A stretch of DNA of 64,000 bases. It comes from Verrucomicrobiia bacterium (lineage in GTDB: Bacteria > Patescibacteriota > Saccharimonadia > Saccharimonadales > JAGQNK01). The position numbers and the translations under genes were made by a program. Where the stretch lies: positions 148,514-212,513 of the forward strand of contig DATHJY010000011.1 in assembly GCA_035489575.1 (NCBI GenBank), given 5' to 3'. Positions 49,497-60,942 of the stretch are shown in pieces. Under the pieces are notes generated by a model. That model did not search any database. It worked only from the letters and a program-made list of their open reading frames with translations, and was not told the DNA's origin. Positions within the stretch are counted from its first letter, which is position 1. Every line of letters starts with the position of its first letter.

Positions 49497-50311
49497 TGGG
49501 TGCAATTGACCAAGATCCATGGTTTTTGAGTGACAAGCTAGAAGGCAAATACCCCGTTGCATCGCCAGATGAGTTGGCCGATGAATGGCACGCCTACACA
49601 GAACGAGAAACGCACGCACTACAGGGTGTGTTAGGTGCCTACGCCAAACCTGTCGGGGAAGTATGTGCCGTCGCCTCTATCGATTTATGCGAAGTAACGC
49701 GTGACACAGCCGTAAGCCTTGGCGATTTGGTCGGCGAACCACTCGAACGCGGACAGTACTCAGAGGGCACCTGGTATTCTGTCGAAAACATGGGGTTAGA
49801 TTTTGAATACTCAGTCGTACTTGGTGGGCTCCAACACCTCATGAACAACGACCTCGTAGGAGCCATCCCAGGAATTGACGAGGTGAGCCACACCTTGCGT
49901 GGCTGGCGAGAGCAAGGCGTCTATATGGCGGCCAATACATCTACCTTGCCCGGCTGCGAACTTGCTACTATCCGTCATCACCTCGAAAAAGATCTGAAAG
50001 GATGCTTTGACGCCCTTCTTCTACCTCGCAACTACGACGGCAGAGGGAAAATGACCAAGGCGCAGGCTCTGGATGTGCTCGGCCAAGAAGCCGGGATAGA
50101 CATAGGGGCGCTGCCACTGGTACACATTGACGACGCTACCCACCATGTCCAGGGATTTATTGATCACTTCGGGGACCATCCGACAAGCGCATTCCTAATG
50201 CCAGCACACAACTACAACCAAGCACCCGTGGCAGAGATGCGCTGCGAAGATCCGCCTGAGGCATTCGCACGAGCACACGAATTCTTACAAAAACAAGGAG
50301 TACTGCAATGA
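49496..50311 (+). CDS. hypothetical protein, possibly HAD/NT5C-like nucleotidase fold
   Basis: Overlapping start and stop with both neighbours. IDLCEV aligns where DxDxV is expected, and HIDD occurs late in the sequence. Weak. Confidence 0.35.
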   Translation: MGAIDQDPWFLSDKLEGKYPVASPDELADEWHAYTERETHALQGVLGAYAKPVGEVCAVASIDLCEVTRDTAVSLGDLVGEPLERGQYSEGTWYSVENMGLDFEYSVVLGGLQHLMNNDLVGAIPGIDEVSHTLRGWREQGVYMAANTSTLPGCELATIRHHLEKDLKGCFDALLLPRNYDGRGKMTKAQALDVLGQEAGIDIGALPLVHIDDATHHVQGFIDHFGDHPTSAFLMPAHNYNQAPVAEMRCEDPPEAFARAHEFLQKQGVLQ

Positions 50312-52644
50312 GCGAAAAAGGTGTGTTTCTAGTCATCGAGGGCACTGACGGATCAGGCAAGGGTACCCAGTTTAAATTGCTAGAGGAACACTTACGCCAG
50401 CAGGGTCACGACGTGGTGACGTGTGATTTTCCACAGTACGATCAGCCCTCTAGCTTTTTTGTACGCGAATACCTAAACGGCAAGTACGGCACTGCGGACG
50501 AAGTAGGCCCCTATACCGGTTCGCTCTTTTACGCCCTAGACCGCTACCACGCTGCCTCCCAGATCCGGGAAGCTCTGGAAGCCGGCAAGGTAGTGCTAGC
50601 CAACCGCTTTACGGGCAGCAACATGGCCCACCAAGGCACCAAGTTCAACCACGCCGAAGAACGCCGGGGCTATTTTATCTGGTTGGACAACCTCGAGTTC
50701 CAGATGCTGGGCATCCCGCGCCCAGACAAGAGTTTCGTACTCCGGGTGCCAGCCGAGATCGCCCAAAAACTAGTAGACCAAAAAGAGCAGCGCAGCTACA
50801 CCGATAAAAAACGCGATATCCACGAGGCCGACCTAGGCCACCTGCAAAAAGCCGTCCAAGTCTACGATGACCTATGTCAGCTATTTCCCAAGGACTTCCA
50901 GCGGCTGGACTGTGTGCGAGGCGACACACTGCTTTCTATCGACCAAGTTCAAAATATGCTCCGCAAAACTATCCAGCCACTGCTACCAAAACCAGCTGGC
51001 AAGAAATCAGCTGCCACCACGGCAAAAGCCCCCAGTAGTATCAAGAAGCCAGACAACCCGTACGTCAAAAAGACCAGTCATGGCTGGGAAGTGACAGAGG
51101 CCGGCAAGCAGTTCCTAGAAGCAGCCATAACCAACGTAGACGGCGATGTCTATGCCTTCAAAGATAAGCTAAGCACGCTTACGGTGGCAGCAGCCATGGC
51201 CAGACTCAGTCGCCGCGGGGACGACATGCGTGTCACCATGCTGGACGAATTTGCTATGCACGAGGGCAAAGACGAAGGCCTGATCCACCGCGTAATTACC
51301 GCCTATGGGGACGACTCCGTCCAACAGCTAGTGGGCCAACACATCGTGGTAGAGAACGCTAGCAACCTACTGACCAAACAGCTCGAATGGGGACGCTTGG
51401 CGTCCTACCTAGAACAGTCCACCCGCTATATTTACTTTGACCAGAAAGATGCCAAAGGGCAATACAAATACTACACACCAGATCATATAGATGAGCTGAC
51501 CACGGCCAAATACACCGCCACCATGGATAGCATTTTTGACACCTACTCGTCCATGGCCCGCGATCTGACAAATTATTTGCAGATCCACTCATCTACCCCC
51601 AAAGAAGAGCAAGACGGTGCCTGGCGCGGGGCCATCCGGGCTCAAGCCTGCGATGCCATCCGGGCAACGCTGCCCGTAGCCACCAAGTCTACCGTGGGTA
51701 TTTTTGCCAGCGGCCAGGCGCTAGAGATGCTTATCATGCGTCTGCGGGCCAGCGAAAGCAAAGAAGCCCAAGCCGTTGGCGAGCAAGTTCTGCAAGAAGC
51801 CCGCAAAGTTATCCCAACCTTCCTGGAGCGAGCCGACAAGCCCGAACGTGGTGGTGCCACCACCGCCTACCTGTCTGACAACCGCAAAGCCATGAAGTCA
51901 GTGGCCAATCGATACCTACCAGACACCCACAGTAACGGCCACCAAGCCGTTACCCTGCACAGCGTCTGGCCCCGCAAAGAACTAGACCTGGTGCCACACA
52001 TGCTCTACGAATCGACGCAGCTGTCACTAGAAGAAATCACCAAAGAAGTAAACACCTGGCCCATAGACAGAAAGCTCGAAGTATTCAACACCTACATAGG
52101 AGAGCGCCTGAATCGCCGGCACCGTCCGGCCCGGGCATTGGAGCAGGCACACTACACCTGGGATCTGCTGTGTGACTACGGCATTTTCCGTGACCTGCAG
52201 CGCCACCGCATGGTGGACGACCTACAGTGGCAAGCGCTGACCCCCCGATACGGCTACGAAATACCCAAGCTGGTAGAAGACGCCGACCTGACCGAATCGT
52301 TCGAGAAGTGTTTTGACCTGTCTGCCAGGTTGTATTCCACACTCCAGGCCGCCGGCTATCTCTACGAAGCCCAGTATGCCACCTTGTTGGGACACCGCAT
52401 GCGCTGGAAGATTACCTATAATGCCCGCGAAGCATTTCACCTGCACGAACTGCGTACCAGCCCCCAGGGACACCCCGGCTACCGCAAACTCGTGCTCGAA
52501 ATGCACCAGAAACTGGCCGAGGTTCACCCCATGCTGGCCGAAGCCATGAAGTTTGTGAACCAAGGGGAAGACCCCGAGCTAACCCGTCTGGCAGCCGAAC
52601 GCTACACCCAGTTCAAGCTGCAGCAGATGCCGGAAAATATCTAA
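50308..52644 (+). CDS. fusion protein: thymidylate kinase plus large FAD-dependent thymidylate synthase (ThyX-like)
   Basis: N-terminal FLVIEGTDGSGKGTQ...DRYHAASQ...NMAHQG is Tmk-like. C-terminal ~560 aa carry FRDLQRHRM and NAREAFHLHELRTSPQGHPGYR, which are ThyX-type blocks. Confidence 0.75.
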   Translation: MSEKGVFLVIEGTDGSGKGTQFKLLEEHLRQQGHDVVTCDFPQYDQPSSFFVREYLNGKYGTADEVGPYTGSLFYALDRYHAASQIREALEAGKVVLANRFTGSNMAHQGTKFNHAEERRGYFIWLDNLEFQMLGIPRPDKSFVLRVPAEIAQKLVDQKEQRSYTDKKRDIHEADLGHLQKAVQVYDDLCQLFPKDFQRLDCVRGDTLLSIDQVQNMLRKTIQPLLPKPAGKKSAATTAKAPSSIKKPDNPYVKKTSHGWEVTEAGKQFLEAAITNVDGDVYAFKDKLSTLTVAAAMARLSRRGDDMRVTMLDEFAMHEGKDEGLIHRVITAYGDDSVQQLVGQHIVVENASNLLTKQLEWGRLASYLEQSTRYIYFDQKDAKGQYKYYTPDHIDELTTAKYTATMDSIFDTYSSMARDLTNYLQIHSSTPKEEQDGAWRGAIRAQACDAIRATLPVATKSTVGIFASGQALEMLIMRLRASESKEAQAVGEQVLQEARKVIPTFLERADKPERGGATTAYLSDNRKAMKSVANRYLPDTHSNGHQAVTLHSVWPRKELDLVPHMLYESTQLSLEEITKEVNTWPIDRKLEVFNTYIGERLNRRHRPARALEQAHYTWDLLCDYGIFRDLQRHRMVDDLQWQALTPRYGYEIPKLVEDADLTESFEKCFDLSARLYSTLQAAGYLYEAQYATLLGHRMRWKITYNAREAFHLHELRTSPQGHPGYRKLVLEMHQKLAEVHPMLAEAMKFVNQGEDPELTRLAAERYTQFKLQQMPENI

Positions 52645-54141: not shown

Positions 54142-54423
54142 CTAGGCCACCGCCAGGCGAGCTCTCTTGGGTGGCACGTACCGAATGCGCGTCCAGCCCG
54201 CTCGCGGATGGCCCTTGCGGTACTTGCGCAGCCTCAAGCGATCGACCTGCTTCATGGCTCTCAGGGCAACAGCGATTTGGTCAAGAGTGACACCCTTGAC
54301 GTCTATGTCATTGCGAAAGTTGGCGAGGTCTCCGTAAACCACCGAGCCTTTTCTCTTCATGAAGGTTTCAATAGCACGTTGGATGTACGCCTGCATTGCA
54401 TTGTCTTGTCGGGCCAAGGCCAT
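54142..54423 (-). CDS. hypothetical basic protein
   Basis: 93-aa ORF with a strong RBS (CTGGAGGA directly before the ATG). Basic C-terminus. Confidence 0.4.
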   Translation of the reverse strand: MALARQDNAMQAYIQRAIETFMKRKGSVVYGDLANFRNDIDVKGVTLDQIAVALRAMKQVDRLRLRKYRKGHPRAGWTRIRYVPPKRARLAVA

Positions 54424-54771
54424 TCCTCCAGTTGTCGTGTTCTAACTTACAAAGCCAGAACTGGTGCTATCCCCCCTAAGGGATCTATGGAAGTCAGTGC
54501 TCCCACCCAGTGAACTTGGTAGTGTAGACAAGTCCACTGGGCGGATTCGCTGACTGTTGCGAAAGTGTGGGTTAAAAAAACCGGATCCAGCCTTATGGTT
54601 GGATCCGGTAGAGTTTTGCTTTGTTGCTGTGTATTTCTATGCGGCGTTACCAGTTCCAACCATTTTGTTCCAAATGAGCACATAGCCAAACACTTGGCGT
54701 AGATTGTGCTTCATAGTGGTGGTTGAACTTTGGTAGGTCACGGTAAAAACTTTACGCTATAGCCCGATCAG

Positions 54772-54800
54772 TTGTCAAGCCTGGGTGCTTATGGTATGAT
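54772..54800 (+). promoter_or_regulatory. promoter TTGTCA-17-TGgTATGAT
   Basis: -35 at 54772-77 and extended -10 at 54792-800. ATG of the leader ORF is 10 nt downstream. Confidence 0.55.
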
Positions 54801-54810
54801 CCACCCCATT

Positions 54811-54891
54811 ATGCGTTTTAACCATGCTAACAGTTTGCTCCTCCTCAGCCTTAACGGGCTGTGCTTCAGCAGGGTTGAAGCCAAGGGTTAG
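54811..54891 (+). CDS. putative Leu-responsive leader peptide (26 aa)
   Basis: MRFNHANSLLLLSLNGLCFSRVEAKG. Four consecutive Leu codons at 54835-46 and two more downstream. Embedded in alternative hairpins. Confidence 0.5.
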   Translation: MRFNHANSLLLLSLNGLCFSRVEAKG

Positions 54892-54920
54892 CGCCCTCTT
54901 GCACAGTCCAAAACCAAAAA

Positions 54921-54944
54921 AGGCTTCAACCAGAAGTCTTTTTT
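54921..54944 (+). terminator. attenuator terminator
   Basis: AGGCTTC-aacca-GAAGTCT followed by TTTTT. The 5' arm can alternatively pair with TTGAAGCC at 54875-82. Confidence 0.6.
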
Positions 54945-54963
54945 AACTTTTTAGGAGAAAATT

Positions 54964-55200
54964 ATGGCCGCCGAAGGATTAACAGTAGAGCAGGGCGTAT
55001 TAAGAGACCCGAACATGGCAGATGCAGAGCACACTCGACGCGTTGCCACGCTCTCGGGGTACCCCAGCATGCAACAAAGAATAGCAGCAGCCTCTATGGA
55101 TAAGGTTGATACAGTGCCGGTAGACGAGGTAACGGATATTCCTGATCTTGCCCGGCGGATGGCGATTGCTAGTACTGTGACGGTCGATCACGTCCTGTAG
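54964..55200 (+). CDS. hypothetical small acidic protein
   Basis: 78-aa ORF with RBS TAGGAGAAA. Confidence 0.45.
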   Translation: MAAEGLTVEQGVLRDPNMADAEHTRRVATLSGYPSMQQRIAAASMDKVDTVPVDEVTDIPDLARRMAIASTVTVDHVL

Positions 55201-55205
55201 GGTCG

Positions 55206-55234
55206 TTGACAAAAAAACAGAAGGAGAGTAACTT
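55206..55234 (+). promoter_or_regulatory. promoter TTGACA-17-TAACTT, 7 nt before ATG
   Basis: -35 at 55206-11 and -10 at 55229-34, with leader ATG at 55242. Confidence 0.4.
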
Positions 55235-55241
55235 AAGCCTC

Positions 55242-55289
55242 ATGACACAGAGACAGCTCGTGATTGAGGTGGTGATTCTCCCCGGCTAG
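55242..55289 (+). CDS. putative branched-chain amino acid leader peptide (15 aa)
   Basis: MTQRQLVIEVVILPG. Seven of eight central codons are Leu, Val or Ile. Confidence 0.5.
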   Translation: MTQRQLVIEVVILPG

Positions 55290-55328
55290 CGGGTCTCTTG
55301 TGCATGCCTAAAGATTTTGACAAGAAAC

Positions 55329-55356
55329 ATCCCGCGAAACCCGCGGGATTTTTATT
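55329..55356 (+). terminator. attenuator terminator
   Basis: ATCCCGCG-aaacc-CGCGGGAT followed by TTTTTATT. GCGGG at 55289-93 can pair with CCCGC at 55331-35 as an antiterminator. Confidence 0.65.
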
Positions 55357-55376
55357 ACAAAGATAAGGAGTAAGAC

Positions 55377-55574
55377 ATGAGCGCAGAAACAGAACCAGGA
55401 ATACCAAACTATATGAATGGTGAGGTACTTGCACTGTCCGATACAGACACCCCGGCAACCGAACCGGAAATTGACACGGACACTCCCGTTCAACCGCACG
55501 CTGACGCCATCGATGACATTCGCAACGAGCGAAATTCCAACTACGGCTATGGCGGGGAGAACTTCGGTGTCTAA
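55377..55574 (+). CDS. hypothetical small acidic protein
   Basis: 65-aa ORF with a strong RBS (AAGGAG). Overlaps the ridA start. Confidence 0.4.
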   Translation: MSAETEPGIPNYMNGEVLALSDTDTPATEPEIDTDTPVQPHADAIDDIRNERNSNYGYGGENFGV

Positions 55575-55938
55575 GGTATTTGGCCCCTACAGCCCCATCA
55601 GACAGGCCGGAAGCCTGTACTACGTGTCTGGGCAAGTAGGCGTGGACCCAGACACCAACCAGTGCGGCCACACCATAGAGGAACAAACCGGACAGGTTAT
55701 GGCCAACATGCAGACAGTTCTAGCATCCGCAGGACTTGATATAAGTGACGTAGTCAAATGCACCATCTACCTCAAGGATATGAGCGACTTCGCAAAAATG
55801 AACGACGTCTACGCTGGCTTTTTTGAGCCGCCATTCCCAGCCCGCGGTACCGTAGCCGTAAAAGACCTGCCGCACGTCGGGGGCGAGGCAAATATTCTGG
55901 TAGAGATCGAAGCCATTGCTTATAAGGAATCAGCGTGA
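55549..55938 (+). CDS. ridA: RidA/YjgF-family reactive intermediate deaminase
   Basis: FGPYSPIRQAGSLYYVSGQVGVDP...PARGTVAVKDLP...VEIEAIA. Start is ATG 55549, or GTG 55567 which has GGGGAGA upstream. Confidence 0.8.
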   Translation: MAGRTSVSKVFGPYSPIRQAGSLYYVSGQVGVDPDTNQCGHTIEEQTGQVMANMQTVLASAGLDISDVVKCTIYLKDMSDFAKMNDVYAGFFEPPFPARGTVAVKDLPHVGGEANILVEIEAIAYKESA

Positions 55939-57650
55939 GCGAACTTGATGGTGCCCAAGCGCTGGTTAGTACCCTAGAGAAACATGGGGTCGAATATATC
56001 TTTGGCTATTCCGGCGGTGCCGCTATCCCTATTTTTGATGCCTTGATCACCACCAAGACCAAGATCAAACTGATCCTGACCCGTCACGAGCAAGGCGCTG
56101 CCCACATGGCTGACGGCTATGCTCGGGCCAGCGGCAAACCAGGCATCGTCCTAGTCACCAGCGGGCCAGGTGCCGGTAACACCGTCACTGGGCTCATGAC
56201 CGCCCAGATGGACAGCGTGCCTATTATCGTTATTTCGGGCCAGCAGATCAGATCCATGCTGGGCATGGATGCCTTCCAAGAGGCCGACATCTTTAATATG
56301 ACCATGCCAGTGGTCAAGCACAGCTACCTGATCCGCGAGACCAACGATATCCCCAGTATTGTGGACGAAGCCTTCCATATCGCTACCACTGGCCGGCCCG
56401 GCCCGGTGCTGATAGATATCCCTAAAGATGTCAGCAGTGGCGACTTTAGCGGGGAATTCGACAAGCCCATCGATTTGCCGGCCTACAAACAACCCGCCAC
56501 TATCGACCATAAGAAAATTCAGGCCATAGCCGACGCCTGGGCCAAGGCCAAAAATCCAGTCATTCTGGCGGGGCATGGCGTGTTGATTTCTGGTGCTCAC
56601 AAACAATTGACCAAATTAGCAGAGCAAATGGACACGCCCGTTACCACCACACTGCTAGGCAAGGGAGCCTTCCCTGAAACCCACCAGCTGTCGCTGGGCA
56701 TGCTGGGTATGCACGGCACCGCTTACGCCAACAAAGCCATGGTAGAGTGCGACTTTTTGCTAAACATTGGCTCGCGGTTCGACGACCGTATTGTTGGTGC
56801 GCCCGCTGCCTTCTGCAAAGACGCCTTTATTGCCCATGTCGATATTGACGCCAGCGAGATTGGCAAGATGATCCACCCCAACGCGGCCGTAGTGGCCGAC
56901 GCCAAGGCTGGCATAGAAGCACTCAGCAAAACTGTCAAGGCCCAAAAGCATAATGACTGGAACAAACACCTAGATGAATACCGCCAGAAATACCCCCTAA
57001 CCTACAGCGACAAAAACGGTCTGACCATGCAAAAGGTAATAGACGAAGTCTACAAATTTACCAAAGGCAAGGCTATCGCTGTAACAGACGTAGGACAGCA
57101 TCAGATGTGGGCCGCCCAATTCTACAAAACCGATGACCCGCACATGTGGCTCAGCTCTGGCGGTGCCGGCACCATGGGTTACGGCTTTCCTGGCGCCATT
57201 GGCGCCCAATTTGCTCGCCCCAACGACGATGTTATAGCTTTTGTGGGCGACGGTGGTTTTCAAATGACACTGTTTGAACTAGCTACCGCTTGCATCCATA
57301 AGTTGCCCCTCAAAATTTTTGTCCTGAACAATCACTATCTGGGCATGGTGCGTCAGTGGCAAGAGCTGTTCTTTGACAACCGCGAGAGCGGTGTAGATCT
57401 AGAGGGCAACCCCGACTTTGCCGCTCTGGCCGAGGCCTACGGTGCCAAAGGCGTCAACATAACGTCAGCAGATCAAATTGATGCCAAGCTCAAAGAGGCC
57501 TGGGCAGTCACCGACCGGCCAGTGGTTATCAACGTAGAAGTCATCAAGACTGATAACGTCTACCCCATGGTGCCTGCCGGTGCCCCACTAGAGAGCATGA
57601 TCGTTACCGCACCAACCACAAAACTAGCCAAACCCACAGGGAGTACTTAA
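55935..57650 (+). CDS. ilvB: acetolactate synthase large subunit
   Basis: GTGA overlap with the ridA stop. TPP motif GGAGTMGYGFPGAIGAQ...GDGGFQM...NN. Confidence 0.92.
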   Translation: MSELDGAQALVSTLEKHGVEYIFGYSGGAAIPIFDALITTKTKIKLILTRHEQGAAHMADGYARASGKPGIVLVTSGPGAGNTVTGLMTAQMDSVPIIVISGQQIRSMLGMDAFQEADIFNMTMPVVKHSYLIRETNDIPSIVDEAFHIATTGRPGPVLIDIPKDVSSGDFSGEFDKPIDLPAYKQPATIDHKKIQAIADAWAKAKNPVILAGHGVLISGAHKQLTKLAEQMDTPVTTTLLGKGAFPETHQLSLGMLGMHGTAYANKAMVECDFLLNIGSRFDDRIVGAPAAFCKDAFIAHVDIDASEIGKMIHPNAAVVADAKAGIEALSKTVKAQKHNDWNKHLDEYRQKYPLTYSDKNGLTMQKVIDEVYKFTKGKAIAVTDVGQHQMWAAQFYKTDDPHMWLSSGGAGTMGYGFPGAIGAQFARPNDDVIAFVGDGGFQMTLFELATACIHKLPLKIFVLNNHYLGMVRQWQELFFDNRESGVDLEGNPDFAALAEAYGAKGVNITSADQIDAKLKEAWAVTDRPVVINVEVIKTDNVYPMVPAGAPLESMIVTAPTTKLAKPTGST

Positions 57651-57656
57651 GATCTC

Positions 57657-57815
57657 ATGCAATGCAATTCACAAGATTCAAGACAGATGATTTTTGAGCG
57701 AAATCAACAAAATCGAGTAAGGGGTAATTGTCATTACACCGCACGAGATCTTGTTAGATTGCAGCCAAAAAGGGCTGTTTTGAAATTATGCAATTGCATT
57801 GTAGGAGGTCTTTGA
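57657..57815 (+). CDS. possible 52-aa basic Cys-containing ORF filling the ilvB-ilvN spacer
   Basis: ATG 57657 with GGGAG 13 nt upstream. TGA at 57813-15 overlaps the ilvN ATG (TGATG). Below the ORF-track cutoff. Confidence 0.25.
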   Translation: MQCNSQDSRQMIFERNQQNRVRGNCHYTARDLVRLQPKRAVLKLCNCIVGGL

Positions 57816-58069
57816 TGCAGCACGTTGACCACACCCTTGTCTTGACCGTTCGCAACCAGCCAGGCGTCTTGGTGCGCATTGCTCACGTCTTTGCCCGCCG
57901 GGGCTGCAACATTCGCTCGTTGCGCGTAGAACCTCACGCCGACGAGCAATGGTCTACCATGACCATCATAGTCCGTGACGTGCCACGCCTAGACCAGATG
58001 ATCCACCAACTGCAAAAGCTCATAGATGTCTCTACCGTCAAAGACCACACCGCCGTCCAAAAAAACTAA
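57815..58069 (+). CDS. ilvN: acetolactate synthase small subunit (short, ACT-only)
   Basis: RBS AGGAGG. HTLVLTVRNQPGVLVRIAHVFARRGCNIRSL is the ACT-domain signature. Confidence 0.75.
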   Translation: MQHVDHTLVLTVRNQPGVLVRIAHVFARRGCNIRSLRVEPHADEQWSTMTIIVRDVPRLDQMIHQLQKLIDVSTVKDHTAVQKN

Positions 58070-59143: not shown

Positions 59144-59452
59144 ATGAGTGCACTCGAACAAGGAAACGCCTCAGACCCCACCGACCTGGTTGGCGGTGAA
59201 TATGTGGTGGGTTTTTTGGAGGACAAAGTCCAGGCCCTGGACGAAGCGCCTGATACATCAACAGAGGGAGTAACCCCACCACCATACGCAGACATACGCT
59301 GGCCCGAGGATAGACCAGCTCAACCTCCCGTACGACTCAGCCAAGAAGTAGTCGTGGTCATAAATGGCCAGCCAGTCATCCGTGAAGAGTTATATGCACG
59401 CACCTATTATGGTTCGTCGTCAGTTCCCCCAAGACAGGGGTTATCATCATGA
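59144..59452 (+). CDS. hypothetical acidic/Pro-rich protein
   Basis: 102-aa ORF with RBS AAGGAG. ATGA overlap with ilvA. Confidence 0.45.
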   Translation: MSALEQGNASDPTDLVGGEYVVGFLEDKVQALDEAPDTSTEGVTPPPYADIRWPEDRPAQPPVRLSQEVVVVINGQPVIREELYARTYYGSSSVPPRQGLSS

Positions 59453-60942
59453 AAGACCCTCTTAAGCAAACCCTCCTGGCACGTGTCTATGATGTTGCCA
59501 CAGAGTCGCCGCTGCAGCGGGCCACCAAACTCAGCACACAAGTAGGTGCCGATGTCTATTTGAAGCGCGAGGACTTACAGCCCGTGCACTCCTTCAAGCT
59601 GCGTGGAGCCTACAACAAAATAGCCAGCCTCAGCCCCGCCGAAAGAGCCAAGGGTGTTATTGCGGCCAGCGCCGGCAACCATGCCCAAGGCGTAGCTCTG
59701 AGTGCTCAGAAACTCGGTATCCGGGCTCTCATAGTCATGCCTACCACTACCCCCAGCATCAAGGTAGATGCCGTCAAAAGCTACGGCGCCCAGGTAGAGC
59801 TGGTTGGCGACAGCTATTCTGACGCCTACGATCACTGCATGCAGCGGGTCAAAGAAACCGGCATGACTTTTGTACATCCCTTTGACGATCCACTGGTCAT
59901 AGCCGGGCAGGGAACTATCGGTCGCGAGTTGCTAGAGCAACTGCCAGATATGACCCATGTCTTTGTTCCTGTCGGTGGCGGGGGGCTCATCGCCGGTGTC
60001 AGTCAGTTCATAAAAGGTATCCGCCCAGATGTAAAAATCATCGGTGTCGAGCCCGAAGACAGCAATGCCATGCAGCAGTCGTTACAGGCCGGCAAGGTAG
60101 TCACCCTGGACCACGTAGGGATCTTTGCCGATGGCGTAGCTGTTAAGAGCGTTGGCCAGCTCACTTTCCAGATCACCCAGAAATATGTAGACCAGGTCAT
60201 CACCGTCAGTACCGATCAAATGTGTGCTGCCATCAAATCACTATTCGAGGATACTCGCAGCATTGTCGAACCAGCCGGTGCCCTAGCCGCAGCTGGCGTG
60301 CAACACTACAAGCTACCAAAGGACGCCAAGGCCGTAGCTATCTGTTCTGGTGCCAACGTCTCCTTTGAGCGCTTGCAGCAAATTGCCGAACGTACCCTGA
60401 TAGGCTCCGGCAAAGAAGCGTTGTTTGCCGTCACCATGCCTGAACAAGCTGGTGCCCTACACACCTTTTGCCAACAGGTGCTGAATGGCCATAGCATCAC
60501 TGAGTTCAATTATCGGCTCAACAAGCGCGAAGGTGCCCATGTATTGGTTGGTGTATCTGTAGCCAACGAAGCAGACAAGCTTGCATTCATGAAAAAGATG
60601 CAGCAAGATGACTACGAGCACATAGACTTATCAGGCGACGATATCGCCAAAGAGCACGTCCGGCACATGGTAGGGGGACCAGCTGATCAGGCTAAGTCTG
60701 AGCGCTTGTATCAGATCGACTTTCCGGAGCGACCGGGTGCCCTGGGCGGCTTCCTGGCCGCCGTTGGAACAGCCTGGAACATCAGCGCCTTTCACTACCG
60801 CAATGCGGCCAGTGACACCGGCAACGTATTGATAGGCTTCGAAGTAGATAACCCCACAAAGCTAGAGGACAAACTGTCCCAAGCAGGCTACCAATGGCGA
60901 AGCGTAGACCACAGTCCTTCACTTAAAGTATTTATTGAGTAA
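59449..60942 (+). CDS. ilvA: biosynthetic threonine dehydratase (with C-terminal regulatory domains)
   Basis: PLP-lysine motif LQPVHSFKLRGAYNK, the GGGGL loop and two ACT-like C-terminal repeats. Confidence 0.92.
   Translation: MKDPLKQTLLARVYDVATESPLQRATKLSTQVGADVYLKREDLQPVHSFKLRGAYNKIASLSPAERAKGVIAASAGNHAQGVALSAQKLGIRALIVMPTTTPSIKVDAVKSYGAQVELVGDSYSDAYDHCMQRVKETGMTFVHPFDDPLVIAGQGTIGRELLEQLPDMTHVFVPVGGGGLIAGVSQFIKGIRPDVKIIGVEPEDSNAMQQSLQAGKVVTLDHVGIFADGVAVKSVGQLTFQITQKYVDQVITVSTDQMCAAIKSLFEDTRSIVEPAGALAAAGVQHYKLPKDAKAVAICSGANVSFERLQQIAERTLIGSGKEALFAVTMPEQAGALHTFCQQVLNGHSITEFNYRLNKREGAHVLVGVSVANEADKLAFMKKMQQDDYEHIDLSGDDIAKEHVRHMVGGPADQAKSERLYQIDFPERPGALGGFLAAVGTAWNISAFHYRNAASDTGNVLIGFEVDNPTKLEDKLSQAGYQWRSVDHSPSLKVFIE

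Follow-up and report, generated by a model that had tools for sequence, protein, structure and literature searches.

A putative leucine-responsive attenuator with a leaderless leader peptide ahead of a variable gene slot in a Saccharibacteria-like soil lineage

Positions 54772 to 54944 of a 64,000-nt stretch of the metagenome-assembled genome GCA_035489575.1 (contig DATHJY010000011.1, positions 148,514 to 212,513 of the forward strand; here called the window, whose own numbering is used throughout) carry a promoter, a short leucine-rich leader open reading frame (ORF) and an intrinsic terminator, which together are referred to below as the Leu element. The interpretation favored here, to which we assign a probability of about 0.75, is that the Leu element is a Leu-responsive, ribosome-mediated transcription attenuator whose leader peptide would be translated from a leaderless or near-leaderless mRNA. 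This attenuator reading is well supported by sequence conservation, by the preservation of the reading frame, by the covariation of paired bases and by folding energetics; the start of transcription, the translation of the ORF, ribosome stalling and readthrough are inferred from the sequence. Gene callers miss the Leu element, and no Rfam family covers it.

Anatomy and conservation of the leader

All features of the Leu element lie on the plus strand. Its sigma-70-type promoter (54772-54800) consists of the -35 hexamer TTGTCA (54772-77), a 17-nt spacer and the extended -10 sequence TGgTATGAT (54792-800, with TG at 54792-93 and TATGAT at 54795-800), and scored 10/12 plus TG in a promoter scan. 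Transcription is predicted to start at about 54806-09, which is 2-5 nt 5' of the ATG at 54811. The leader ORF (54811-54891) has 26 codons, encodes MRFNHANSLLLLSLNGLCFSRVEAKG and terminates with TAG at 54889-91; it is not preceded by a Shine-Dalgarno sequence. Leu accounts for six of the 26 codons, four of which are consecutive (UUG CUC CUC CUC, 54835-46) and are followed by CUU (54850-52) and CUG (54859-61), the regulatory Leu codons thus spanning 54835-54861. CUC is a minor Leu codon: across 22 long ORFs of the window it specifies 13% of the Leu residues.

The 3' part of the leader ORF and the nucleotides behind it contain four segments capable of alternative pairing. Segment 1 (GCUUCA, 54863-68) can pair with 54876-81 (UGAAGC) within segment 2, forming helix P2. 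Segment 2, the 5' half of the antiterminator, comprises GGUUGAAGCC (54873-54882) with the 8-nt core UUGAAGCC (54875-82), and segment 3, which provides both the 3' half of the antiterminator and the 5' arm and loop of the terminator, comprises GGCUUCAACC (54922-54931) with the 8-nt core GGCUUCAA (54922-29). The two form a perfect 10-bp helix (54873-82 with 54922-31) with a duplex energy of -16.5 kcal/mol. Segment 4 (GAAGUCU, 54933-39) leads into a T-run (54939-44), so that the intrinsic terminator (54916-54944) reads AAAAAAGGCUUC, loop AACCA, GAAGUCUUUUUU and T-run; its fold has an energy of -12.1 kcal/mol and it ends 20 nt before the ATG of the next ORF (54964).

Ahead of the terminator, an RNAalifold consensus of five lineages defines a three-way domain (54856-54909) of helices P1, P2 and P3. 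P1 is a long-range helix of 9 bp (GGGCUGUGC, 54856-64, with GCACAGUCC, 54901-09) that encloses segments 1 and 2; its 5' arm ends with G54863 and C54864, the same two bases that form the outer G-C and C-G pairs of P2. P3 pairs AGGG (54884-87) with CCCU (54894-97) and holds the stop codon in its loop. Folding energies of the domain are -26 to -27 kcal/mol in all five lineages that were folded (-27 in the window), and the minimum-energy fold of the Leu leader (-41.9 kcal/mol, z = -2.47) is dominated by P1.

A first-pass annotation, made from the letters of the sequence, had described at this place a leuL/trpL-type leader in which the pairings 1:2, 2:3 and 3:4 exclude one another and an intrinsic terminator follows, and this description is well supported by six lineages in which the arrangement is kept and its helices covary. 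Its promoter was recovered both by direct reading and by the promoter scan, its leader ORF by direct reading and in the ORF list, and its Leu codons, four segments and T-run were all found where it had put them, the terminator scan reporting the hairpin at 54916-44. The 2:3 pairing likewise exists at the position given, with a length of 10 bp instead of the 8 bp proposed. P1, P3 and the missing Shine-Dalgarno sequence of the leader ORF had no place in that account.

Relatives were collected by a protein search with ilvB, after which their contigs were compared. The Leu element was found in the window and in five other lineages, L166 (ilvB identity 95%), L167 (86%), L168/169 (86%), L170/171 (82%) and L176 (86%), whereas L172, L173 and L174 (ilvB identity 78-79%) have no Leu leader near ilvB and retain the second leader described below. 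The five contigs that encode the 78-residue ORF following the element in the window are all identical to the window over the leader region and hence provide no variation there; four are identical throughout, and L001 differs by a single mismatch outside the leader region. Among the matches listed in ilvB-anchored scans of genome and metagenome contigs there were only other phyla, with at most 65% identity, and these loci were reused as negative controls for a covariance model. Two additional contigs, P0010 and P0011, are known from their gene lists alone, and L175 provides no DNA upstream.

The leader peptides encoded by the orthologous ORFs of L166, L167, L168/169, L170/171 and L176 are MRFNHANSLLLLSLNGLCFSMVEARD, MSFNLLNQLLLLGLTGLRFSMVEATD, MKILKHSLLLLGLTLLLRGLCFSMVEAAE, MTYKNLKQFALLLGLNGLCFSMVEAAG and MKTSALNLLLLLGLNGLCFSMVEASE. 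Across the six lineages they have 26-29 codons, including 6-10 Leu codons, and every orthologue contains the CUC CUC (CUC) run as well as the distal CUU and CUG. The N-terminal residues vary freely; the frame, the Leu codons and the position of the stop are kept. All insertions and deletions in the leader ORF (3, 6 and 12 nt) are multiples of three, and a 12-nt in-frame insertion in L168 adds further Leu codons. A -35/-10 pair is found at a matching distance from the ATG in L166, L167, L168, L170 and L176 (36-39 nt from the start of the -35), and in 6/6 lineages the -10 is followed after 7-10 nt by the ATG, with no Shine-Dalgarno sequence in front of it. Because of this spacing and the missing Shine-Dalgarno sequence, the leader ORF is presumed to be translated in a leaderless fashion.

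Identity to the window is concentrated in the RNA core (5' arm of P1 to segment 2, GGGCUG to GAAGCC), which is 93-96% identical, compared with 48-63% at third codon positions of ilvB; over the promoter and the 5' part of the leader ORF identity falls to about 41-66% in L167, L168 and L170. Segment 2 is invariant in all six lineages, and so is segment 3 over 10 nt, including the AACC loop bases, which are dispensable for the terminator. The 3' arm of the terminator varies (GAAGUC, GAAGCC, GAAACC, AAGCC), and the invariance of segment 3 opposite a variable segment 4 fits a dual pairing role of segment 3.

Compensatory changes were observed in P1, where the pair 54862/54903 changes from U-A to C-G in L167, and in P3, which is AGGG/CCCU in the window, AGGGA/UCCCU in L166, CGGA/UCCG in both L167 and L168 and, in L176, UCGGA/UCCGA; the two final residues of the peptide vary at the same time (KG, RD, TD, AE, AG, SE) while the pairing of P3 holds. 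The terminator is present in 6/6 lineages, and the bottom of its stem covaries as well (A-U, C-G, U-A). The comparison of orthologues called for by the first-pass annotation thus returned a conserved Leu run, frame, terminator and pair of antiterminator halves in six lineages, with covariation in P1, P3 and the terminator.

A covariance model built from five lineages (R1) finds the sixth, L176, which was outside the training set, at 105 bits, and has no match in about 1.1 Mb of sequence from other phyla, comprising 135 ilvB loci. In the model-fitted alignment of the six sequences, 92.9% of the cells are paired, a share that drops to 27-47% once the partners are shifted by 1-3 columns; five base pairs have changes on both sides, and the covariation score observed was not attained in any of 500 shuffles. 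The sample being small and closely related and the alignment being fitted to the structure, these pairing and covariation figures support the structure, short of proof. Taken alone, scans of the single sequence are non-significant (in 2.2 kb, 2 promoter-like sites where 1.6 are expected, and 3 terminator-like sites where 1.9 are expected), and runs of four Leu codons occur 12 times in 128,000 six-frame codons. What lifts the Leu element above chance is the retention of its entire arrangement, together with compensatory changes, by five further lineages.

Proposed mechanism and the gene it would control

According to the attenuator reading, transcription would start 2-5 nt before the ATG at 54811 and a ribosome would load at the 5' end of the RNA. 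With ample Leu-tRNA, the ribosome would reach the stop codon at 54889-91, which lies 7 nt after segment 2, and its footprint (about 54874-54903) would mask segment 2 together with P3; segments 3 and 4 would then pair, and RNA polymerase would terminate at the T-run (54939-44). Termination would also be the outcome on RNA free of ribosomes, in which the P1/P2/P3 domain (54856-54909) would sequester segment 2. When Leu-tRNA is scarce, the ribosome would stall on the Leu codons. If it does so at the distal CUU (54850) or CUG (54859), the 5' arm of P1 and segment 1 would be covered; at CUG 54859 the covered stretch would end immediately before segment 2. Segment 2, left free, would pair over 10 bp with segment 3 to give the antiterminator while segment 4 is still to be transcribed, allowing readthrough into the ORF at 54964 and possibly onward to a second attenuator.

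The folding energies agree with this sequence of events if the choice is made during transcription. When the nascent RNA ends at segment 3 and segment 1 is covered, the 2:3 helix is the minimum-energy fold in 5/5 lineages tested. In the full-length RNA of the window, antiterminator and terminator differ little in energy (-22.9 vs -23.1 kcal/mol), so that the choice between them would be kinetic. Equilibrium folds of the full-length RNA, even under a ribosome mask, always give the terminator and never the antiterminator. The comparison of terminator and antiterminator folds that had been proposed as a check of the element therefore came out on both sides, with the antiterminator in nascent-transcript folds and the terminator in every equilibrium fold; an antiterminator restricted to nascent transcripts is what a kinetic mechanism leads one to expect.

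The gene predicted to be directly controlled in this genome is a 78-residue ORF (54964-55200, plus strand) with the Shine-Dalgarno sequence AGGAG at 54953-57. Among 5.8 billion proteins its only match is itself, and it has no Pfam match. The first-pass annotation had placed the Leu element at the head of a transcription unit continuing into ridA-ilvBN; as a simple description this has to be revised, since a second promoter-like site, leader ORF and terminator (55206-55355) are located directly upstream of ridA-ilvBN and the gene immediately behind the Leu leader is the orphan 78-residue ORF or, in relatives, an isopropylmalate-synthase-like gene.

The window and L166 are 85.6% identical as far as the terminator end at 54944 and share nothing from there until 55257, such that a 1.65-kb HMGL-like gene of L166 corresponds to 312 nt with the orphan ORF in the window. 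The slot at 54945-55256 is hypervariable between conserved flanks, with a Shine-Dalgarno sequence and ATG directly after the terminator in every lineage; it corresponds to positions 1169-2818 in L166, 2750-2965 in L167, 2170-2447 in L168, 1410-2960 in L170 and 410-1600 in L176. In the window, L167 and L168 it holds ORFs of 78, 66 and 82 residues, which are unrelated to each other and to any enzyme. L166 and L170/171 encode a divergent HMGL-like protein of 513-521 residues, whose best family and structure matches (L166, L170) are all 2-isopropylmalate synthases, far below the family cut-offs. The slot of L176 encodes a protein of 390 residues that consists of the catalytic domain only, is barely related to the slot protein of L166 and has best NCBIfam matches that are all 2-isopropylmalate synthase (230 bits). 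According to its gene list, the P0010 contig has a 411-residue HMGL-like protein in the slot.

An isopropylmalate-synthase-like gene thus follows the Leu leader in four of seven lineages (L176, L166, L170/171 and P0010) and is absent in the window. Such a gene would be the logical target of the element, and in this genome it appears to have been replaced by an orphan ORF while the element stayed intact. A derivation of the 78-residue ORF from a remnant of the HMGL-like gene was considered and rejected, as no similarity was found by blastp, tblastn or blastn with word size 7.

The Leu run CUCCUCCUC (54838-54846) is also complementary to the AGGAG Shine-Dalgarno sequence of the downstream ORF (54953-54957). 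The minimum-energy fold of the full readthrough RNA pairs these two sites, and in ensemble folds the window, L167, L168 and L176 each have about 6-7 expected base pairs joining the Leu zone to the Shine-Dalgarno zone, L166 and L170 about 0. In these models, pairing of the Leu run with the Shine-Dalgarno sequence would be a possible second layer of control.

Evidence against the mechanism and competing explanations

Several observations weigh against the attenuator reading. In trpL and leuL the control codons lie nearer to segment 1 than the CUC run does here: a ribosome with the last CUC in its A site would extend at its 3' edge only to 54856-59, the first bases of P1, and the 2:3 helix then wins in 1/5 lineages when the edge is set at +12 and in 3/5 when it is set at +15. 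The invariant distal CUU (54850) and CUG (54859) are better placed for switching than the CUC run, and these folds suggest that effective antitermination may need the two distal codons or queued ribosomes. As the leader ORF has no Shine-Dalgarno sequence, the model depends on leaderless initiation, for which no report from this phylum was found in the literature. The six lineages are all close relatives and the pair counts come from a model-fitted alignment, and the key 2:3 helix is invariant, that is, conserved without covariation. The downstream gene in this genome is an orphan and not a Leu-pathway gene, and with Bacillus ORFs of L037 as queries no homologue of ilvC or leuA was found within the 64-kb window, the matches being to ilvB and ilvN only. 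Finally, attenuator-like leader ORFs upstream of ilvB and leuA of Streptomyces coelicolor are reported to deviate from classical attenuators in their behavior (PMC1262725).

In an explanation that dispenses with stalling, the three-way domain would bind a protein or a small molecule, or would act in the manner of the actinobacterial LEU element, described in PMC1262725 as a pseudoknot whose base stem is formed by the Leu-codon run and the downstream Shine-Dalgarno sequence. The compact three-way junction closed by a base helix is an architecture common among riboswitches, the S. coelicolor case (PMC1262725) offers a precedent, and the CUCCUC run is complementary to the downstream Shine-Dalgarno sequence, with pairing predicted in 4/6 lineages, as for the LEU element. 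We nevertheless consider this explanation improbable. Insertions and deletions of 3 nt and multiples preserve the reading frame, the start codon stays at a fixed distance from the -10, L168 has gained its Leu codons in frame, and the stop codon remains in the P3 loop although the sequence of P3 changes; all of this is expected of a translated ORF and is not required by an RNA sensor. Nor does any riboswitch or T-box of Rfam match here: Rfam at gathering thresholds reported two tRNAs and an L10 leader for the whole window and nothing else, a search of 54300-55500 at E up to 10 gave no match at the Leu element, and Leu_leader (RF00512), T-box and the known riboswitches were rejected as candidates on these grounds.

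The peptide itself, hydrophobic and Leu-rich as is typical of small membrane peptides and furnished with its own promoter and terminator, might instead be the product of a stand-alone gene for a membrane peptide or toxin, the complementarities being incidental. This is very hard to reconcile with the pattern of substitution, given that the codons GGG CUG UGC UUC AGC AUG GUU GAA GCC are conserved at synonymous positions, that changes are compensatory or confined to loops, and that the C-terminal residues vary (KG, RD, TD, AE, AG, SE) with P3 pairing maintained; in addition, the perfect 10-nt complement to the 5' arm of the terminator is invariant in six lineages, and a gene bearing a Shine-Dalgarno sequence follows within 20 nt in every one of them.

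A different concern is addressed by the suggestion that the Leu element is an orphaned relic which, its isopropylmalate-synthase-like target having been lost in this genome, no longer regulates leucine supply and is intact only through the recency of that loss or merely gates an unrelated small ORF. This is possible, though on the unlikely side. The end of homology between the window and L166 (ilvB identity 95%) at 54944, with 312 nt of orphan slot in place of a 1.65-kb HMGL-like gene, would be explained in this way, as would the unrelated orphan ORFs in the slots of L167 and L168, the single G-U pair in each of P1 and the terminator where relatives have G-C, and the fact that no leuA-like sequence was found in the window. 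Yet nothing is damaged in the promoter, the ORF, any of the Leu codons, either half of the antiterminator or the terminator; the element is kept in three independent lineages without the enzyme, and a core identity of about 95% against about 50% at neutral sites argues for continuing selection. A Shine-Dalgarno sequence and ATG right after the terminator are present in every lineage, and readthrough could still feed the ridA-ilvBN attenuator downstream. The relic proposal concerns the present role of the element and not its mechanism, and is compatible with the attenuator reading.

Genomic setting, known systems and biological meaning

The order of genes in the window is a thymidylate kinase-ThyX fusion, several proteins without a family, the attenuator locus, a 65-residue ORF, ridA, ilvB and ilvN; downstream of ilvN are an amino-acid-kinase-like gene on the opposite strand, ilvA, and an L10 leader with rplJL. 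The branched-chain genes visible in the window are limited to ridA, ilvB and ilvN (55377-58069) and ilvA (59449-60942). The fusion gene (50308-52644, plus strand) encodes a 778-residue protein combining thymidylate kinase with flavin-dependent thymidylate synthase (Pfam Thymidylate_kin and Thy1), and a fusion of this kind is also located upstream of the locus in L168, L173 and L174.

The nearest named relatives of ilvB (55935-57650) belong to Candidatus Saccharibacteria, Saccharimonadia and Patescibacteria (68-77% identity), as do those of ribosomal protein L10 (62298-62822; 80-82% identity). For this reason the host is treated here as a soil lineage of Saccharibacteria, and the NCBI label Verrucomicrobiae of the metagenome-assembled genome is probably an error of binning or classification; the labels of all relatives likewise stem from binned metagenomes.

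Three elements composed of a leader ORF and a terminator cluster within 800 bp. The second leaderless attenuator candidate (55206-55355, plus strand), directly upstream of the 65-residue ORF, ridA and ilvBN, has a promoter with TTGACA (-35, 55206-11) and TAACTT (-10, 55229-34), a leader ORF (55242-89) encoding MTQRQLVIEVVILPG, whose ATG at 55242 lies 7 nt after the -10 and which ends in TAG at 55287-89, and a terminator at 55329-49 followed by a T-run. The element is kept in nine lineages (LVIEVVIL or LILEVVII), its terminator stem covaries, and in L170 an upstream GCGGG has become ACGGG, matched by CCCGU in place of CCCGC in the 5' arm of the terminator. Its fold has z = -2.8, and Rfam Trp_leader matches it at 26.5 bits, below the gathering score of 41. 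The element is a candidate proximal Ile/Val/Leu leader attenuator of ridA-ilvBN, and since there is no other terminator between the first terminator and the second attenuator, serial control of ridA-ilvBN would be possible.

The third element (54572-54778, minus strand) consists of a leaderless upstream ORF and a terminator (fold z = -4.3), with TAAAGT as -10 and, as -35, TTGACA (54778-73), which overlaps the -35 of the Leu-element promoter. A GTG at 54741 starts the leader VTYQSSTTTMKHNLRQVFGYVLIWNKMVGTGNAA, whose Ser/Thr codons AGU UCA ACC ACC ACU fall within GUUCAACCACC; this sequence pairs with AUGGUUGGAAC, which can alternatively pair with UCCAACCAU in the terminator (54612-54575). Homologues occur in L166, with a compensatory change in the terminator, and in L167, with the antiterminator UUGGAAUCC with GGAUUCCAA. 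Judged by these features, it is a probable Thr-sensing attenuator ahead of an orphan gene of 93 residues (54423-54142). Between the minus-strand terminator and this gene lie 150 untranslated nt, about 85% identical in L166; at about 54500-54540 (minus strand) they contain a long hairpin, CCCAGUGGACUUG...CAAGUUCACUGGG, which has no Rfam match.

The closest known system in function and layout is the enterobacterial leu leader, which encodes a 28-residue peptide with four Leu codons and forms three alternative hairpins upstream of leuA. Like leuL (RF00512), the Leu element has four consecutive Leu codons, including a minor codon, alternative 1:2, 2:3 and 3:4 hairpins and a terminator just before the first gene; an isopropylmalate-synthase-like first gene is shared with leuL in the relatives only, the orphan ORF taking its place in this genome. 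It differs from leuL in that there is no sequence or covariance-model similarity (no Rfam match at E up to 10), so that it is not a member of RF00512, in that the leader ORF starts 7-10 nt after the -10 with no Shine-Dalgarno sequence, in the additional long-range helix P1 and stop-codon hairpin P3, in the position of the main Leu run upstream of segment 1 rather than inside it, and in the Saccharibacteria-like host.

In Firmicutes, ilv-leu operons have T-box leaders, tRNA-sensing riboswitches that bind uncharged tRNA directly and do without a leader ORF. The Leu element as proposed here would resemble them in sensing the charging of a branched-chain tRNA and in choosing between terminator and antiterminator; unlike them it has a conserved ORF that looks translated, and no T-box match was obtained for it (at the gathering threshold over the window and at E up to 10 over the locus).

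Among actinobacteria, leaderless short polycysteine upstream ORFs of mycobacteria reportedly act as Cys-responsive attenuators, and a three-hairpin attenuator model is said to have been put forward for ilvBNC of Corynebacterium glutamicum. The second element (55206-55355) is like the leaders of C. glutamicum ilvBNC and of enterobacterial ilvB and ilvGMEDA in having an Ile/Val/Leu-rich leader (LVIEVVIL) and a terminator upstream of acetolactate synthase genes; to Trp_leader it is similar only distantly in form (26.5 bits against a gathering score of 41).

RNA-seq of C. glutamicum has revealed leader peptides upstream of trpE, leuA, ilvB and aroF (PMC3890552), and the Leu element shares with actinobacterial leaders a leader peptide encoded at or near the 5' end of the transcript (PMC3890552; PMC1262725). 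Actinobacterial ilvB leaders are known from PMC1262725, in which candidate leader peptides are described as having terminators upstream of ilvB and no obvious terminators upstream of cys operons. Pairing of the Leu run with the Shine-Dalgarno sequence, a trait of the LEU element, is predicted here in 4/6 lineages and in none of the other two. In contrast to the LEU element as described, the element of the window has a canonical hairpin and U-run terminator and a clear 10-bp antiterminator, and occurs in another phylum.

A broader reading, which we regard as rather unlikely, would combine the locus into a serial two-signal module of leaderless attenuators around a swappable slot. In such a module, the Leu attenuator would gate a slot that holds, depending on the lineage, either of two unrelated isopropylmalate-synthase-like genes or unrelated orphan ORFs; readthrough would then meet the Ile/Val/Leu attenuator, so that in this genome Leu and Ile/Val signals would act one after the other on the expression of acetolactate synthase. 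Acting in addition as an anti-Shine-Dalgarno sequence, the CUC run would keep the slot gene from being translated whenever no ribosome occupies the run. The divergent Thr-codon attenuator sharing the -35 region would represent a third case of the same strategy, and leaderless attenuation would be general in these Saccharibacteria.

Saccharibacteria and other Patescibacteria have small genomes with few recognizable regulators and are thought to depend on hosts for amino acids. In the literature on attenuation and leader peptides, no report was found for Saccharibacteria, Patescibacteria or the Candidate Phyla Radiation, although the search was incomplete and is weak evidence of absence. The attenuation mechanism is already known and indeed textbook; its value here lies in the place of occurrence, in a reduced-genome lineage of a phylum for which no report of attenuation was found, together with the unusual leaderless start and the annotation gained. 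Covariance model R1 could be used to annotate the Leu element across the lineage. If the attenuator reading is true, the divergent HMGL-like enzymes of the relatives would be leucine-related, since regulatory elements can indicate the function of genes that otherwise resist annotation. It would further mean that a soil lineage of this group monitors the charging of its own tRNA and regulates the branched-chain genes it has retained by classical coupled transcription and translation, working through leaderless leader peptides.

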